From contig CAYIKZ010000003.1 of NCBI GenBank assembly GCA_964364285.1, forward strand, positions 2,491 through 66,490: a stretch of 64,000 nucleotides of DNA, written 5' to 3'. The position numbers were made by a program, and so were the translations under genes. Below the pieces are notes generated by a model that worked only from the letters and a program-made list of their open reading frames with translations, did no database searches and was not told the origin of the DNA. The stretch comes from an uncultured Candidatus Saccharibacteria bacterium (lineage in GTDB: Bacteria; Patescibacteriota; Doudnabacteria; UBA920; VMFF01). This document shows, piece by piece, positions 7,836 to 38,030 of the stretch; position 1 is the first letter of the stretch; each line of letters starts with the position of its first letter.

Positions 7836-9521
7836 ATGCAAAACGAAAACGAAGTCACATTATTCGCCAAAACCAATTTCCGAAACAAGCAGGTGCCTTT
7901 TGGTATCAAGAGAGAAGATCGTAGAAAGCACATGTATGTCATCGGTAAAACTGGTATGGGCAAAACAACGATGATGGAAAACATGATCATCCAAGATATT
8001 GTTAATGACAATGGTCTTGCTTTTGTTGATCCGCACGGCGATTCAGTAGAAAAGATTCTAAACTACATACCAGCGAGAAGAATAAACGACGTGGTGTATT
8101 TCAACCCATCAGACATGGAATTTCCAATTGCTTTTAACATTCTTGAATCAGTTGATCCAAGATACAAGCATTTAGTCGCATCAGGATTAATGGGAGTGTT
8201 TACAAAGATATGGGCAAACCTTTGGTCTGCTCGTATGGAATATATTTTAAACAATGCTATCTTAGCTTTACTTGATTCACCAGGGAATACACTCCTTGGT
8301 ATTTCAAGAATGTTAATTGACAAGAAATACAGAAAACGGATCGTTGATAACGTAAAGGATCCGGTTGTTAGATCTTTCTGGCAAGATGAGTTTGCTAACT
8401 GGAACGAGAAATATAGAATGGAAGCAATTGCTCCAATCCAAAACAAAGTTGGACAGTTCCTTTCTTCAGGAATCATTAGAAATATTGTTGGTCAACCAAA
8501 ATCAACCGTTGATTTAAGAGATTTAATGGATAACAAAAAGATTCTTTTAATGAATCTTTCAAAAGGACGTGTTGGTGAAGACAATTCAGCGCTTCTTGGT
8601 GCCATGATCATTACCAAACTTCAATTAGCAGCTCTTTCTCGTGTTGATATCCCAGAAGAAGATCGTAATGACTTCTACCTATATGTAGATGAATTTCAAA
8701 ACTTTGCAACAGAATCATTTGCAACAATTCTTTCTGAAGCAAGAAAATACCGCCTTAATTTAATTATTGGTCACCAATACATTGGTCAGCTAGTTCAGGA
8801 AAACAACAACACAAAGGTTAGAGATGCTGTATTTGGAAACGTTGGAACAATAGTAACATTCAGAGTTGGTGCAGCTGATGCAGAGTTTTTGGAAAAGGAG
8901 TTCATGCCAATATTTACAGAAAACGACCTTGTAAATATTCCAAAACACACAGTTATATTAAAGTTAATGATAAACGGTGTTGCTTCAGATCCTTTCACTG
9001 CTGAGACACTTCCTCCTGGAACATATGAAAAAACAGATAATGGCGAAAAGATCATACGTGTTTCTAGAGAAAGATATGCAAACCCAGTAACTGATGTTGA
9101 AGATAAAATAACCAAATGGATGGGTCAGGAGTTCCACGAACAAGCTGCGTTGATAGCAGGAAATCAAGTTTTGGAGGGTGAAGAACAATTGGCTCCTCAA
9201 GCACCTATACAGCAAGAGGTACCAGCTCAACCAGAGATGGTAGAAGTTCCAAAAGTTATGGTTCTGCAACAAGCTGAGGCTATGGAAAAAAAAGAAACTC
9301 CTCCAAACCCTGAAAAGAAAAAGAAAAAGAAACCAGGTAATCCAAACAACAGGAGAGACGAAAATCCAATCTGGAATACAGTTGCCAAGATGACTGATCA
9401 AAAGATCAAAGAAACTGAAACTCCTGATGTCTTGTTAAAGACTCTAGAAACAGTTAAAGTATCTGAGAGTCCAAAAAAGGTTCTTAAACCAGGAGAATCA
9501 GTAAAGCTTGATGAAATCTAA
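7836..9521 (+). CDS. P-loop NTPase of the TraG/TraD/VirD4 (TrwB-like, DUF87/HerA-related) family with a Lys/Pro-rich disordered C-terminal tail
   Basis: Walker A VIGKTGMGKTT and Walker B LYVDEFQNFA. Overall layout resembles T4SS coupling-protein ATPase domains. The C-terminus is low complexity (KKKKKKPGNPNN). Confidence 0.5.
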   Translation: MQNENEVTLFAKTNFRNKQVPFGIKREDRRKHMYVIGKTGMGKTTMMENMIIQDIVNDNGLAFVDPHGDSVEKILNYIPARRINDVVYFNPSDMEFPIAFNILESVDPRYKHLVASGLMGVFTKIWANLWSARMEYILNNAILALLDSPGNTLLGISRMLIDKKYRKRIVDNVKDPVVRSFWQDEFANWNEKYRMEAIAPIQNKVGQFLSSGIIRNIVGQPKSTVDLRDLMDNKKILLMNLSKGRVGEDNSALLGAMIITKLQLAALSRVDIPEEDRNDFYLYVDEFQNFATESFATILSEARKYRLNLIIGHQYIGQLVQENNNTKVRDAVFGNVGTIVTFRVGAADAEFLEKEFMPIFTENDLVNIPKHTVILKLMINGVASDPFTAETLPPGTYEKTDNGEKIIRVSRERYANPVTDVEDKITKWMGQEFHEQAALIAGNQVLEGEEQLAPQAPIQQEVPAQPEMVEVPKVMVLQQAEAMEKKETPPNPEKKKKKKPGNPNNRRDENPIWNTVAKMTDQKIKETETPDVLLKTLETVKVSESPKKVLKPGESVKLDEI

Positions 9522-10584
9522 GAAGACTTTAAAACCAAAGAAAAAAGTATTAGTGGCGCTTTCAGGCGGAATTGATTCTGCGGTAAGCGCTGCTTTGTTG
9601 TTGCAACAAGGATATATTGTTGAAGCAGGGTTTATGAAAAACTGGAGTTCAACCGAAGGGCTATTACGTAATGAATGTCCTTGGCTAGATGACAGAAGAG
9701 AAGCTTTAAGAGTAGCCGCATTTTTAAATATTCCATTGCACACTTTTGATTTTGAAAAACAATATCAAGACAAAGTAATGCAGTATTTCTTTAAAGAATA
9801 CAAAGCAGGAAGAACTCCAAACCCTGATGTCATGTGTAACAAAGAGATCAAGTTTAAGCTCCTCTATGACAAAGCAATTAACATGGGTTTTGATTACATT
9901 GCTACAGGACATTATGCTCAGATTAAAAACAGCAAACTCATCAGATCAGTAGATGAGTTCAAAGACCAAACATACTTCATCTACAACCTGGAAAAAGAAC
10001 AACTCAAACATATTCTTTTTCCAATAGGGCACTTAAAGAAGACAAAGGTTCGACAACTTGCAAAAAAGCTTCATCTCCCAAACGCAGAGCGCAAAGAAAG
10101 CATGGGTCTTTGTTTTGTTGGAAAGATTCGTTTAGATCAGTTCCTTTCACAGAAATTAAAACCAAAACAAGGAAACATAGTCGATACAAAAGGCAATGTT
10201 ATTGGAAAACACAAAGGCACCTCTTTCTATACCCTAGGACAAAGACAAGGGTTAGGCATTGGCGGAACCGGTGGTCCTTACTATATCGCTAAAAAAGACG
10301 TTAAAAAGAATATTCTGGTAGTTACCGAAGATCCACATGACAAGCTTTTAGAGTTTAAAGAGATTCATCTTGCGGATGTTAATTGGATTAATGAACCTAA
10401 AAAATATCCAAGTTTTTGCAAGGGACGTTTTAGACACCAACAAGCGCTTCAGGAGTTGAATCTTCGCAAAGAAAAAACAGGGTATATTGTTAAGTTTAAG
10501 AAGAAACAATTTGCAATCGCTTCAGGACAGAGTCTTGTGTTGTACAAAGGAAAAGAATGTTTAGGTGGGGGAGTGATTGGATAA
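9508..10584 (+). CDS. mnmA: tRNA-specific 2-thiouridylase MnmA
   Basis: PP-loop VLVALSGGIDSAVSA and conserved MnmA central and C-terminal regions. The true start is probably a few codons downstream of the ORF-track start. Confidence 0.85.
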   Translation: MMKSKKTLKPKKKVLVALSGGIDSAVSAALLLQQGYIVEAGFMKNWSSTEGLLRNECPWLDDRREALRVAAFLNIPLHTFDFEKQYQDKVMQYFFKEYKAGRTPNPDVMCNKEIKFKLLYDKAINMGFDYIATGHYAQIKNSKLIRSVDEFKDQTYFIYNLEKEQLKHILFPIGHLKKTKVRQLAKKLHLPNAERKESMGLCFVGKIRLDQFLSQKLKPKQGNIVDTKGNVIGKHKGTSFYTLGQRQGLGIGGTGGPYYIAKKDVKKNILVVTEDPHDKLLEFKEIHLADVNWINEPKKYPSFCKGRFRHQQALQELNLRKEKTGYIVKFKKKQFAIASGQSLVLYKGKECLGGGVIG

Positions 10585-10608
10585 AATAACTGTACAACTA
10601 ATTGACAA

Positions 10609-10633
10609 ATACCACTAGCCGTGGTATTTTTTT
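10609..10633 (+). terminator. Rho-independent terminator after mnmA (ataccac-tagcc-gtggtat + T7)
   Basis: 7-bp hairpin followed by a T-run immediately after the mnmA stop. Confidence 0.6.
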
Positions 10634-10675
10634 ATGTTAGTTAGTTGTGCAGGAGGACCTTCACCCGAGGAGAGC

Positions 10676-10957
10676 ATGCGACAGAATGATCTGAGGAGTC
10701 TGCTTTGTGCAGCCGCCGTTGCTGGCAGCGTTACCGAAGCACGAGAGCTTCGCAAGAAGTTCGTGAATGCCATCGGCGCACTCGATGGCTGGGTCCAGTG
10801 CGTCATGCTGGATCTGTATGACGAGATGCTGCGCCAGTGCCCGGAAAGACTTCCGGATCAGTTCGTGTTCTACATGTCGTGCTGCCACAGCGAAGCGGGC
10901 ACGACAGAGCACGGTCTCGGTGCGCTGGAGCAGGCGCTACTCGCACAGTGCACCTAG
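10676..10957 (+). CDS. Hypothetical 93-aa protein encoded in a compositionally foreign high-GC island (alternative start at 10634)
   Basis: GAGGAG Shine-Dalgarno 5 nt before the ATG at 10676. GC3-rich, Proteobacteria-like codon usage (CTG, GCC, GGC, CGC) unlike the rest of the window. High-GC DNA gives long ORFs in several frames, so coding status is uncertain. Confidence 0.3.
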   Translation: MRQNDLRSLLCAAAVAGSVTEARELRKKFVNAIGALDGWVQCVMLDLYDEMLRQCPERLPDQFVFYMSCCHSEAGTTEHGLGALEQALLAQCT

Positions 10958-11024
10958 TTCCATTCGGGCAACAAAACAGGGGCGATCTCTTTGCTGAGAC
11001 CGTCCCTGTGTCACGTCTATTTAC

Positions 11025-13013
11025 CTAGTGTTTTATGAACTTAACCATCAACAACGCGACAATGTTAATAATTTTAATCATTGGGTTAATTGCAGGTCCT
11101 GCAGTATCCTTGTATGGATCACCAACAGTGTCTCCTGTAACTGCTGCTTGATGAGCAAAGGATTTCTTTCCACCATGATGACCTTCCTCAATGTATTTCT
11201 TTGCATTGTCCCATGCAGCACCACCGGTTGTCATGGATATACCAACAAACAAACCAGTGACTATGGAACCAACAATCAAGCCGCCAAGTGCTTTAGCACC
11301 AAGAGTTAAACCAACAACGATTGGAACAACTACTGGGATAAGGGCGGGAATAATCATTTCTTTAATTGCGGCTTTTGTGACAATATCTACAGCCTTTGTG
11401 TAGTCTGGTTTTGCTGTTCCTTCCATAATTCCTTTTATTTCCCTAAACTGTCTTCTAACTTCTTCTACAACAGCATGTGCTGCTTTTCCTACAGCTTGCA
11501 TTGCAATGGAAGCAAAGAGGTAAGGCAACAAACCTCCAATAAACAAACCAACCAAAACTTTTGGATCTGAAATATCAAAGCCAGTATTTATTCCTCTATT
11601 TGTTAATTCTTGTGAGAATGAAGCAAACAAAATGATTGCAGCAAGCCCAGCTGATGCAATTGCATAACCTTTTGTTACTGCTTTTGTTGTGTTTCCAACA
11701 GCATCTAAAGGATCAGTAATATCTCTTACCTCTTGAGGCATACCAGCCATTTCAGCAATACCACCAGCATTGTCAGTTATTGGTCCAAACGCATCAATAG
11801 CAACAACAATTCCTGTTAAAGACAACATGCTCATAACCGCCAACGCAACACCGTAAAGTCCTGCTTGATTGTGTGAAATTAAAATTGCAGCAACAATCGC
11901 TAATACAGGTAGTGCTGTTGATTGCATTGAAACAGCAAGACCAGTAATGATGTTTGTTCCGTGTCCAGTTGTTGAAGCTTGCGCAATGTCTTGTACAGGC
12001 TTAAAGCTTTTTGATGTGTAGTATTCTGTGATTAAAACAATAGCTGCGGTTACTACAAGACCCATTAAAGCAGAGGTATAAAGCTGCCAGAAAGTAAACT
12101 GAGTTTGTGCTGCCATCATGCTTTGGGTAATAGGGTAGAAGGCAACGGCTGAAAGAAGCCCTGAAACAATAAGGCCTTTGTAAAGCGCGCCCATGATACT
12201 TTTCTTAGAACCGAGTCTAACAAATAATGTTCCAATAATTGTTGTAATGATTGAAGCAGCCCCTAGGATTAAAGGATAGGTGATTGCTGCTTCAAAACCC
12301 TTAAAAGTTAAAGAACCAAGAAGCATTACTGCGATTGCTGAAACAACGTATGTTTCAAACAAGTCTGCTGCCATACCCGCGTCATCACCAACGTTGTCAC
12401 CAACGTTGTCTGCAATGACTGCTGGGTTTCTTGGATCATCTTCTGGAATACCGCTCTCAAGTTTACCAACTAAGTCAGCACCAACATCAGCACCTTTTGT
12501 AAAGATTCCACCACCTAGTCTTGCAAATACAGAAATTAAAGAAGCTCCGAAGCCAAGACCAATTAAAGCGCTTAAGTCTTTGTTAAAAGCGTAGAATCCT
12601 GCAACAGAAAGAAGTCCAAGACCTACTACAAACAAACCTGTCACTGTTCCGCCTTGAAAAGCAACAGAAAGAGCTTGTCCTAAACCTTTCCTTGCAGCCT
12701 CTGCTGTTCTGACGTTTGCTCTAACAGCAACATTCATTCCAATGTAACCTGCTAGTGCTGAAGCAACTGCTCCAATCAAAAAACCGATGATTGTGCCGGT
12801 GCTAAAATGAAAGACCCACATTAAAATTGCTAAAACTGCTGCTACTCCTGCAACAGTCTTGTACTGTCTGTTTAAGTATGCGTTTGCCCCCTGTTGTATA
12901 GCTTGCGCTATTTCCCTCATTTTCTCATTACCTTGCTCTTTTTTTAAAACATTGAAGATGAGTGCTGTACCGTAAATTAAAGAAAGCACAGCTGCTATGA
13001 TCGGAAAGGTCAT
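11025..13013 (-). CDS. hppA: K+/H+-translocating membrane pyrophosphatase (V-type H+-PPase)
   Basis: Multi-TM protein with the diagnostic [17 protein letters not shown] ... DNVGDNVGD motifs of H+-PPases. Confidence 0.9.
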
Positions 13014-13116
13014 ATCTTTGTTCTTTTTTCTTAATTAAAAGGTTAATTTTACTTGCTTATTATGCCAAAAAAGCCCAGGTTTTGCAAGACCTTAAGGCTT
13101 TTACTGTCAACACTAT

Positions 13117-13281
13117 TTATTTATGTCTTGATCTTTGAAAAATGATTGTAAAACCCCATATTCCAATGACCAAGTGTATCAGGAGGATATATGCCGGTAG
13201 ATCAAAGTATTCCTTAAAGGCAAACCCTAAAACACCGACTAAAATACCTCCAGTAGCACAAACTACAGCGTATAGTTTCAT
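13117..13281 (-). CDS. Possible small 2-TM membrane protein (54 aa, below the ORF-track length cutoff)
   Basis: Hand translation of the minus strand gives an ATG-to-TAA ORF of 54 aa, MKLYAVVCATGGILVGVLGFAFKEYFDLPAYILLIHLVIGIWGFTIIFQRSRHK, with two hydrophobic helices. Confidence 0.3.
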   Translation of the reverse strand: MKLYAVVCATGGILVGVLGFAFKEYFDLPAYILLIHLVIGIWGFTIIFQRSRHK

Positions 13282-13540
13282 TATTTTTTAATTAGGTTAT
13301 AGAAAGACTCAAGACGAGAATCTGTTCCACAATAGAAGATGCGTTCTGTCAGATTAACGCAATATTGCGGATTTTTATGGATATAGTTGTACTTTGGCAG
13401 GAACCAGTATAGAAATACTGCTGCTGCAAAGAACAAACCATATAGCACAAACTTTATAATTGATAGCATGATATAAGTATATCTGATCTTGTAAAAAGTG
13501 CCAATTTCTGGTATGGTAGAGAAGATTTTTAAAGGAATAT

Positions 13541-13615
13541 TGGGGTGTAGCCAAGTGGTAAGGCATGGGACTCTGAATCCCACATCCGTAGGTTCGATCC
13601 CTACCACCCCAGCCA
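13541..13615 (+). tRNA. tRNA-Gln (anticodon CUG)
   Basis: 75-nt cloverleaf. The acceptor stem is TGGGGTG/CACCCCA with U1:A72 as in bacterial tRNA-Gln. The 3-bp D-stem is GCC/GGC, the anticodon stem TGGGA/TCCCA with loop CTCTGAA (CUG), the T-arm GTAGG-TTCGATC-CCTAC, and CCA is encoded. It closely resembles E. coli tRNA-Gln. Confidence 0.85.
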
Positions 13616-37684: not shown

Positions 37685-37704
37685 ACAGCAAATTATCTCA
37701 TATT

Positions 37705-37732
37705 TGACCTATTTCTTCAATGTTCTAAAATT
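37705..37732 (+). promoter_or_regulatory. Sigma-70-like promoter (TTGACC - 16 nt - TAAAAT) driving the GC-rich structured element
   Basis: Near-consensus -35 and -10 with a 16-nt spacer. The predicted TSS at ~37739 coincides with the start of the GC-rich segment. Confidence 0.35.
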
Positions 37733-37738
37733 AAGTTG

Positions 37739-37995
37739 TTGACTAGCTCAGTCCTACCGGGAGGGTGGGCTGATCAACCCGGGCAAAGCTTGCCCAGGTA
37801 TCTCGCATGAACTCTTATGCAAACTGGGTAGGGAGCCAATCAATCCATCCTGCTTACCTACACAGGAGATATCTTAAGAGCGGAGTGTGCCCAGAGAAAT
37901 TGCGAGGAGTGAAAAGGATGGGGATGAGGCCAGAAGGCCTCTCGAAGGTTGTGCACGCCTATTTTGGCCTCTGCACAACCCTCTTCCCAATTGCT
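37739..37995 (+). ncRNA. GC-rich (~55%) highly structured element: candidate ncRNA or long structured 5' leader of the downstream methyltransferase gene (class unknown)
   Basis: Sharp GC jump in an AT-rich genome. Local hairpins include ccggg..cccgg, gcaa-agc-ttgc, gaggcc-AGAA-ggcctc and ttgtgca..tgcacaa. Long-range complementarities include cctacc/ggtagg and ccatcc/ggatgg. The only ORF in the segment (37807..37998, 63 aa) is likely spurious. Confidence 0.35.
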
Positions 37996-38030
37996 TGAAT
38001 GCTTTGATTACTGTAATATCTTAAGTACAT

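Follow-up and report, generated by a model that had tools for sequence, protein, structure and literature searches.

An orphan protein gene, probably of foreign origin, in a GC-rich island between mnmA and hppA of Candidatus Doudnabacteria

The window considered here (the whole stretch of DNA that was analysed, 64,000 nucleotides (nt) of contig CAYIKZ010000003.1, assembly GCA_964364285.1, from an uncultured member of Candidatus Doudnabacteria) carries two convergent genes, mnmA for a tRNA 2-thiouridylase and hppA for a membrane H+-pyrophosphatase, and between them a short island rich in guanine and cytosine (GC) that contains an open reading frame (ORF) for a protein of 93 amino acids (aa). 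Positions 10640-11010 are 58.5% GC, against 36.4% for the 64 kb as a whole; in steps of 150 nt, where the mean is 0.364 with a standard deviation of 0.044, the island reaches a maximum of 0.62, and it is unique of its kind in the window, the runner-up (37738-37995) topping out at 0.54. A first-pass annotation, made from the DNA letters, had drawn attention to this abrupt island in AT-rich surroundings, to the ORF with a GAGGAG box before its start and to overlapping ORFs in several frames; all are present as described, the last as expected for GC-rich DNA. The feature is a lineage-restricted ORFan protein gene, probably of foreign origin, and it occurs at the same junction, reading mnmA> small gene> <hppA, in all eight lineages (the window and seven others).

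The locus is real and not an artefact. The 601 nt that span both of its junctions (10500-11100) are 100% identical to the window in seven of seven independent assemblies, namely one ENA assembly of Hainich groundwater, the NCBI metagenome-assembled genome GCA_038054795.1 and five Logan assemblies of different runs, all of them located through exact-sequence look-up of the hppA protein and of the 93-aa product, which GCA_038054795.1 already annotates as a hypothetical protein. A blastn search at word size 11 found no match to the locus in 5,426 E. coli genomes, 72,556 plasmids or 50,697 phage records. The earlier suggestion of an assembly chimera or contaminant, or of a vector fragment, to which the abruptness of the compositional jump lends some colour, has a negligible chance of being right, since junctions that are the same in seven assemblies from differing samples and pipelines, together with the empty search of E. 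coli, plasmids and phages, exclude it for practical purposes, and diverged orthologues at the same mnmA/hppA junction in other species also speak against it.

That the ORF is a real protein-coding gene is close to certain, to judge from the way in which it varies. Its frame (+0) is the sole frame with no internal stop in any of the eight lineages, the others being stopped in most, and the chance of a stop-free frame in a sequence of such composition is about 0.02-0.05 per sequence. Over the 89 ungapped codon columns of the eight-lineage alignment, 34, 48 and 13 columns are invariant at codon positions 1, 2 and 3, with entropies of 0.61, 0.47 and 1.09, respectively, and the Nei-Gojobori ratio of nonsynonymous to synonymous divergence (dN/dS) lies at 0.19-0.28 in six pairs; open frame, codon periodicity and dN/dS together argue for a gene under purifying selection. 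The sole internal indel among the compared small genes is one whole codon, and an ATG with a G-rich Shine-Dalgarno (SD) sequence 3-4 nt before it is found in all eight. The protein is fast-evolving, with dN of up to 0.42. Two other kinds of ORF were considered and rejected: a longer in-frame version (10634-10957, 107 aa), whose N-terminal extension begins inside the promoter, is not conserved and has no called-gene record, and antisense ORFs (83-130 aa) that are long in the window and broken in lineage L011 and others.

GC-rich islands in AT-rich genomes are usually RNAs, and the first-pass annotation had allowed for a GC-rich structured or housekeeping RNA here. The island does resemble RNase P RNA, tmRNA and the large RNAs found in screens, in being a GC-rich stretch of about 390 nt between protein genes of an AT-rich genome and in having its own predicted promoter and terminator, and the window copy folds better than shuffled sequences on both strands (z of about -3.1 for the minimum free energy, MFE). 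A reading of it as such a non-coding molecule (RNase P, tmRNA, SRP, 6S or a new large RNA), with the ORF incidental, is nevertheless scarcely credible. Rfam 15 at gathering thresholds matched only tRNA-Gln (13541-13612) in the whole window, and a scan of 10450-11150 at E<=10 yielded just one 18.9-bit hit, to BTnc005 and overlapping the mnmA terminator, which is put down to chance; ARAGORN likewise reported only tRNA-Gln and no tmRNA. The covariation term from RNAalifold is positive, that is, unfavourable (+1.19 with four sequences, +1.83 with eight), with many pairs broken, and all that the program retains is the terminator hairpin on either side and a short long-range helix, with no covariation inside the ORF for either four or eight homologues. 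Synonymous-codon shuffles within each ORF give z from +1.0 to -4.0, so inconsistent across the family as to argue that no consistent selected fold lies within the ORF. Unlike the GC-rich RNAs, the small-gene island thus has neither a covariance-model match nor a conserved fold, and it does have a substitution pattern that follows codon periodicity and a frame that survives at 60-74% nt identity. The second GC-rich spacer of the window, described below, differs from it in keeping, in a two-sequence comparison, all 86 of its predicted pairs, seven with compensatory changes, across indels that are not triplets.

The expression signals around the small gene (Table 1) are far more conserved than the ORF itself, and this holds for the promoter, the mnmA terminator hairpin, an AGGAGGA box, the SD and the 3' hairpin. 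The promoter-like site, which scores 10 of 12 matches plus the TG in a promoter scan and whose TTGACA and GTGGTATTTTTT elements are invariant or nearly so in the eight lineages, would be the one that drives the small gene. It is nested in the mnmA terminator, such that the -35 box stands before the stem, the 17-nt spacer consists of the stem-loop and the -10 box coincides with the T-run; across the eight lineages the stem of this terminator is conserved and its loop is variable (TAGCC, CGAAA, GGAAA, TTGAC, TTTAC or TTTTT). In the 5' untranslated region (UTR) follows a purine box in which AGGAGGA (10651-10657) is invariant in all eight, with no ATG, GTG or TTG at SD distance after it in most lineages. 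This box may be a STAB-SD-like or standby site. STAB-SD is an SD-like 5'-UTR element, reported by Agaisse and Lereclus (1996; listed in the references of PMC7509114) to stabilise the mRNA without starting translation, and the likeness would lie in an invariant AGGAGGA that sits some 12 nt from the predicted 5' end and has no conserved start codon behind it. The SD position itself is occupied by a G-rich box (GAGGAG, GAGGAA, GGGGG, GGAGG or GAGGG) in eight of eight lineages.

At the other end of the gene stands a GC-rich hairpin, invariant in the eight lineages as AAACAGGGGCGATCTC...GAGA..G.CCCTG and with all pairs kept. Its T-run is formed by 10970-10977 read on the minus strand and no U-run follows it on the plus strand, so that it is primarily the terminator of hppA; a minus-strand hairpin and T-run with this role had been proposed from the sequence, and the terminator scan found it and the relatives keep it almost unchanged. 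Nothing else that resembles a terminator lies at the 3' end of the small gene, whose transcript would presumably end at this hairpin. Transcription would most likely begin about 7 nt past a near-consensus sigma-70-type promoter built into the mnmA terminator, run through a 5' UTR of about 38 nt with the purine box and the SD and then through the 93-codon ORF, and most likely end at the strong hairpin, the one at which the convergent hppA terminates too. The island would, in other words, be a small self-contained transcription unit for an orphan cytoplasmic protein of about 90 aa.

Table 1. Features of the mnmA-hppA junction, in window coordinates.
Feature	Position	Strand	Basis
Small protein gene, 93 aa	10676..10957 (stop included)	+	Frame, codon periodicity, dN/dS, alignments
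Promoter-like site: -35 TTGACA 10602-10607, 17-nt spacer, TG-extended -10 TATTTT 10625-10630	10602..10630	+	Promoter scan
mnmA intrinsic terminator hairpin	10607..10629	+	Terminator scan; RNAalifold pairs kept in 8/8
5'-UTR purine box GCAGGAGGA (GTAGGAGGA in one lineage)	10649..10657	+	About 20 nt before start; 8-way alignment
Shine-Dalgarno GAGGAG	10667..10672	+	3 nt before ATG; sequence
Candidate long-range helix, 5' arm, covering SD up to the base before ATG	10665..10675	+	RNAalifold, 8 sequences
Candidate long-range helix, 3' arm (last stop-codon base and start of 3' UTR)	10957..10967	+	RNAalifold, 8 sequences
GC-rich hairpin common to the convergent genes	10976..11010	.	Terminator scan on minus strand, core 11002-10983
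Stretches in the predicted small protein: DLYDEMLR; GTTEHGLGALEQ			
mnmA (tRNA 2-thiouridylase), upstream neighbour	9508..10584	+	ORF; Pfam tRNA_Me_trans on identical gene in L001/L003
hppA (membrane H+-pyrophosphatase), convergent neighbour	11025..13013	-	ORF; Pfam H_PPase

The one short helix that RNAalifold retains besides the terminators would pair the SD region with the first bases of the 3' UTR. Pairing holds in 81% of its cells over the eight sequences, versus 72% for shuffles (3/500) and no more than 58% for slid controls, and eight cells show double changes (0/500 shuffles). The helix is present in both the MFE and the centroid folds of the window sequence, and the partition function backs it strongly in only three of the eight transcripts. 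We regard it as equivocal, a lead. There are precedents in the icaR mRNA of Staphylococcus aureus, where a 3'-UTR UCCCCUG pairs with the SD (PMC3868564), and in the hbs mRNA of B. subtilis, with its interaction of 5' and 3' UTRs (PMC5737220). The candidate helix is like these in joining the SD region to the 3' UTR with some compensatory changes. It is unlike them in that only about 20 nt of 3' UTR, a very short stretch, precede the terminator and in that the pairing is predicted in only three of eight homologues.

The distribution of the gene is narrow and its position fixed. A profile search of 5.8 billion proteins returned eight clusters in all for the family; the four new ones among these were traced to contigs, and every one sits between mnmA and hppA. 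An exhaustive hmmsearch against 1.84 billion cluster representatives gave the family (one cluster) and nothing else, six-frame searches found no homologue beside 76 other mnmA loci or beside 80 hppA loci from outside the clade (<=75% identity), no GC island lies downstream of hppA in any of the 15 nearest out-clade hppA loci examined, and the IMG/VR viral contigs hold no relative. Within the clade the versions are well diverged, with pairwise nt identities of 60-74% among the eight lineages, bar one close pair (L088/L093) at 91%. A scan of GTDB species genomes with MnmA places the organism in Candidatus Doudnabacteria (Patescibacteria). In three of the nearest genomes, L008, L009 and L011, whose MnmA proteins are 93, 91 and 84% identical to that of the window, islands of 56-61% GC lie between mnmA and the convergent hppA; they are 69-72% identical in DNA, and each retains a same-frame ORF of 90-97 aa with recognisable conserved residues. 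The small gene is present at every in-clade locus that reaches the junction and absent from the sister clade, which places its gain on a single older branch, and its protein was found in only one small group of ultra-small groundwater bacteria, within Candidatus Doudnabacteria.

In the sister Doudnabacteria L012 and L013 (MnmA 73 and 70% identical) mnmA is followed by ppa, a gene for a soluble inorganic pyrophosphatase (172 aa, plus strand), and this in turn by a gene for a membrane protein of 52-58 aa and a 62-aa gene; the stretches compared are 10585-13470 of the window, 5039-6005 of L012 and 5075-6006 of L013. The two genes beyond ppa have their counterparts in the window at 13120-13287 and 13284-13469, and no ppa occurs within the 64 kb. 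Since the sister lineages hold ppa at the site, the small gene and hppA occupy the place of ppa. The small gene has very probably been inherited vertically, after being gained on the branch where hppA replaced ppa, and it did not arrive with hppA from any sampled relative. The small membrane protein gene (54/58 aa) next to the replaced ppa is inverted in the window. A relation of the small protein to the displaced Ppa was considered, and hhalign shows none.

The first-pass annotation had considered here a very recent acquisition, and had called a convergent-terminator junction a classic place for selfish or defence cargo. Foreign-looking codon usage and the site between convergent genes are what such a reading has in its favour, and it is very improbable: the gene is shared, in fixed position, by eight lineages that are close to saturated at synonymous positions (dS of 1 or more in most pairs), and it stands as a single gene between housekeeping genes. 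PADLOC gave a best E-value of 0.039, in one of the eight members and not significant, PHROG matches all had E>0.1, and no relative on viral contigs was found. A look for flanking direct or inverted repeats as insertion scars gave only short chance matches, and no integrase, mobility or partner gene flanks the small gene.

A somewhat better case, still an improbable one, can be made for an origin de novo within the clade, from GC-rich non-coding DNA (for instance a decayed structured RNA or a piece of carrier DNA) brought in or created by the rearrangement that put hppA in place of ppa. Searches at every sensitivity left the gene without a homologue beyond the clade, it is a young, short gene that evolves fast, long open frames arise by chance in GC-rich DNA, and the structural model of the protein is of low confidence. 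Against this, purifying selection is already clear, with 25 invariant residues that include a well-defined set of motifs; no non-coding precursor has been seen, the sister lineages carrying ppa at the site; and there is no relation to Ppa.

The composition of the small gene sets it apart from its neighbours. Across lineages its GC at the three codon positions is about 0.65/0.39/0.68, with GC3 ranging over 0.59-0.76 in the eight, as against 0.45-0.53/0.30-0.43/0.27-0.33 for mnmA and hppA; in the window copies GC3 is 0.69 for the small ORF, 0.33 for mnmA and 0.27 for hppA. The codons are strongly non-host, CTG, CGC, GGC, GCC, TTC, ATC, TGC, AAG and CAG being favoured, so that the choice is inverted relative to the host. 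The foreign-looking codon usage noted at first sight is thus borne out by comparison with host genes; of the foreign origin read into it, the composition keeps the idea plausible and the search for a donor found none. The amino-acid make-up is rich in R, A and C and poor in K, N and I, with an Arg:Lys count of 45:15 against 53:130 in host genes. The codons that end in C are kept unevenly in two-fold families (TTC 0.94, ATC 0.85, TGC 0.88, but GAC 0.45), and all-A/U codons are almost missing (TTT 0.06, ATT 0.10, ATA 0.05, TTA 0.00), with GAT and CAT tolerated. Among the Gln codons CAG makes up 71% in the small gene versus 27% in the neighbouring host genes, and a tRNA-Gln with anticodon CTG, which reads CAG directly, is encoded in the window at 13541-13615 (+).

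ORFan genes of atypical composition are usually read as horizontally acquired DNA undergoing amelioration, after the concept of Lawrence and Ochman. The small gene is like them in deviating strongly in composition and codons, in lacking homologues, in being short and fast-evolving and in appearing on one branch alongside a local gene replacement. It is unlike them in that it is not strain-specific, having a fixed place in no fewer than eight diverged lineages and still about 57% GC, and in that it is under clear purifying selection, has conserved expression signals and stands alone, with neither an island nor mobility genes or repeats around it. As an overall explanation we lean towards an orphan gene that was acquired from a foreign source long ago and is ameliorating slowly, and, with a shade less assurance, towards its high GC being the decaying legacy of that high-GC origin. 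The 56-60% GC, the GC-rich codons and the amino-acid bias would all be inherited from the source; purifying selection on the protein would hold GC1 and GC2, and the synonymous sites would decay only slowly towards the AT-rich equilibrium of the host. From four-fold sites of hppA, a decay factor of 0.41-0.53 per lineage gives a four-fold-site GC (GC4) of 0.53-0.62 from a fully GC ancestor, and observed values are about 0.5-0.74, so that amelioration is quantitatively possible. In the only unsaturated pair (L088/L093, polarised by L091) there are 13 changes from strong (G or C) to weak (A or T) bases, S->W, versus two W->S, over both lineages.

Several observations sit uneasily with slow amelioration of a foreign gene. 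The noisier rates based on mnmA predict that neutral decay should already have brought GC4 below about 0.47. The 13:2 excess is marginal (p ~0.045 against the artefact expectation from controls); the control on flanking genes shows that parsimony over-infers changes from common to rare states, which makes the polarisation weakly informative. Under uniform decay one would not expect C-ending codons to be retained as unevenly as they are, with GAC at 0.45 and TTC at 0.94. Between the window and L008 the small gene has a dS of 1.04, against 0.40 for mnmA and 0.20 for hppA, which are exceeded by factors of 2.6 and 5; possible causes are a raised mutation rate, recombination with diverged alleles and, in the neighbours, constraint on codons. 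A donor or distant homologue was found nowhere, and the argument for a foreign origin is one from composition. Lastly, AlphaFold2 with the eight-sequence alignment yields a weak model, four helices and a disordered C-terminus at a predicted local distance difference test score (pLDDT) of 61.

The alternative that best survives is that the high GC is no donor legacy and is kept up actively, whether through selection on the nucleic acid or through GC-biased gene conversion, which we consider unlikely. GC3 has stayed at 0.59-0.76 in eight lineages despite near-saturated synonymous sites, mnmA-based rates predict less GC than is observed, and the near absence of all-A/U codons, with GAT and CAT tolerated, and the uneven keeping of C-ending two-fold codons would fit it, as would the strongly conserved promoter and UTR elements and the helix between SD and 3' UTR, with its partial covariation support and its precedents in icaR and hbs. 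The polarised counts for the window and L008 are balanced as well, at 23:24, a comparison among saturated sequences in which parallel decay mimics W->S change; the closest pair, on the other hand, shows the net loss of GC given above. The folding results also tell against maintenance: no conserved fold exists inside the ORF, where the covariation term is +1.2 to +1.8 and many pairs are broken, the synonymous shuffles are inconsistent across the family, and the helix at the SD is strong in only three of eight transcripts. On this less likely view one may tentatively picture a hardened mRNA, resistant to nucleases, long-lived and translationally gated, in an AT-rich cell exposed to RNases: AU tracts would be few, an SD-like element at the 5' end would stabilise the message, the 3' UTR would mask the SD and a strong hairpin would close the 3' end. 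The locus could otherwise be a hotspot of GC-biased conversion.

Two other parts of the window deserve mention beside the island. The second GC-rich spacer (about 53%) occupies 37735-38000 (+) between genes for a cysteine-desulfurase-like protein and a Trm11-like methyltransferase, with a promoter-like site before it at 37704-37731. It has no Rfam match at E<=1, its MFE z is -3.2 on the plus and -4.0 on the minus strand, and against the homologous spacer of L174 it shows indels that are not multiples of three; the two-sequence RNAalifold of the pair, from which the 86 kept pairs were counted, has a covariation term of -6. It is probably an unannotated structured RNA of about 260 nt. In more distant Doudnabacteria the same gap holds a gene for a membrane-anchored protein of 104-142 aa (L175 1131-1500, L176 1156-1476, L177 1037-1465, minus strand), of which the L176 and L177 products match Pfam ArfC (PF27542) and the L175 ORF is not a called gene. 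The window clade has GC-rich non-coding sequence in this gap, a second instance there of GC-rich DNA in place of a gene. Upstream of mnmA, and overlapping its start by 14 nt, lies a gene (7836-9521, +, 561 aa) for a protein like the TraD/TrwB-type coupling proteins, with Pfam TrwB_AAD_bind and TraG-D_C found on the identical product; its low-complexity C-terminal region is the moderately GC-rich stretch seen just before mnmA in many related loci.

As to what the orphan protein does, the invariant residues (W39, Q41, C42, D46, Y48, D49, E50, P60, Q62, F65, M67 and G75-T-T-E-H-G80) are the main guide. No significant match was found in Pfam, NCBIfam, PHROGs, PADLOC or a PDB sequence search, and Foldseek against the PDB gave none at E<=0.001 (best E 2.0, probability 0.25). 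The predicted product is small, acidic and helical, and its conserved surface would present one invariant Cys, a cluster of Asp and Glu and the GTTEHG loop. These residues hint at a binding protein or one that depends on a metal or thiol, and binding to a partner or a metal would be its likeliest mode of action.

Small sulfur-carrier proteins of the TusA type serve MnmA, and a small protein with an invariant cysteine encoded beside mnmA invites the comparison. Unlike TusA, however, it has no Pfam or NCBIfam match, its CP (residues 55-56) is lost in five of the eight aligned sequences (as SP, CS, SQ or SR), its model is all-helical, at low confidence, and not alpha/beta, and the sister lineages retain mnmA with no small protein. 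That same phyletic pattern favours hppA over mnmA as a partner, and a functional link to the co-gained H+-pyrophosphatase, a long shot, is the best available guess.

The main effect of these results is to clear away a false lead, in that a striking GC island in an AT-rich genome of the candidate phyla radiation becomes an ordinary orphan protein gene; it is neither a new large RNA nor defence cargo, and it is no contaminant. It is unusual in one respect, the persistence of high GC through deep divergence: a value of about 57% GC, with GC3 of about 0.68, kept by no fewer than eight diverged lineages where the genome stands at 36%, makes it a small natural test case for amelioration versus selection on composition in reduced genomes, and if GC were indeed maintained, it would be an unusual case of nucleotide-level selection shaping a protein gene in Patescibacteria. 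The small gene appears, moreover, exactly where a membrane H+-pyrophosphatase replaced a soluble one, which gives this uncharacterised family a concrete candidate partner.

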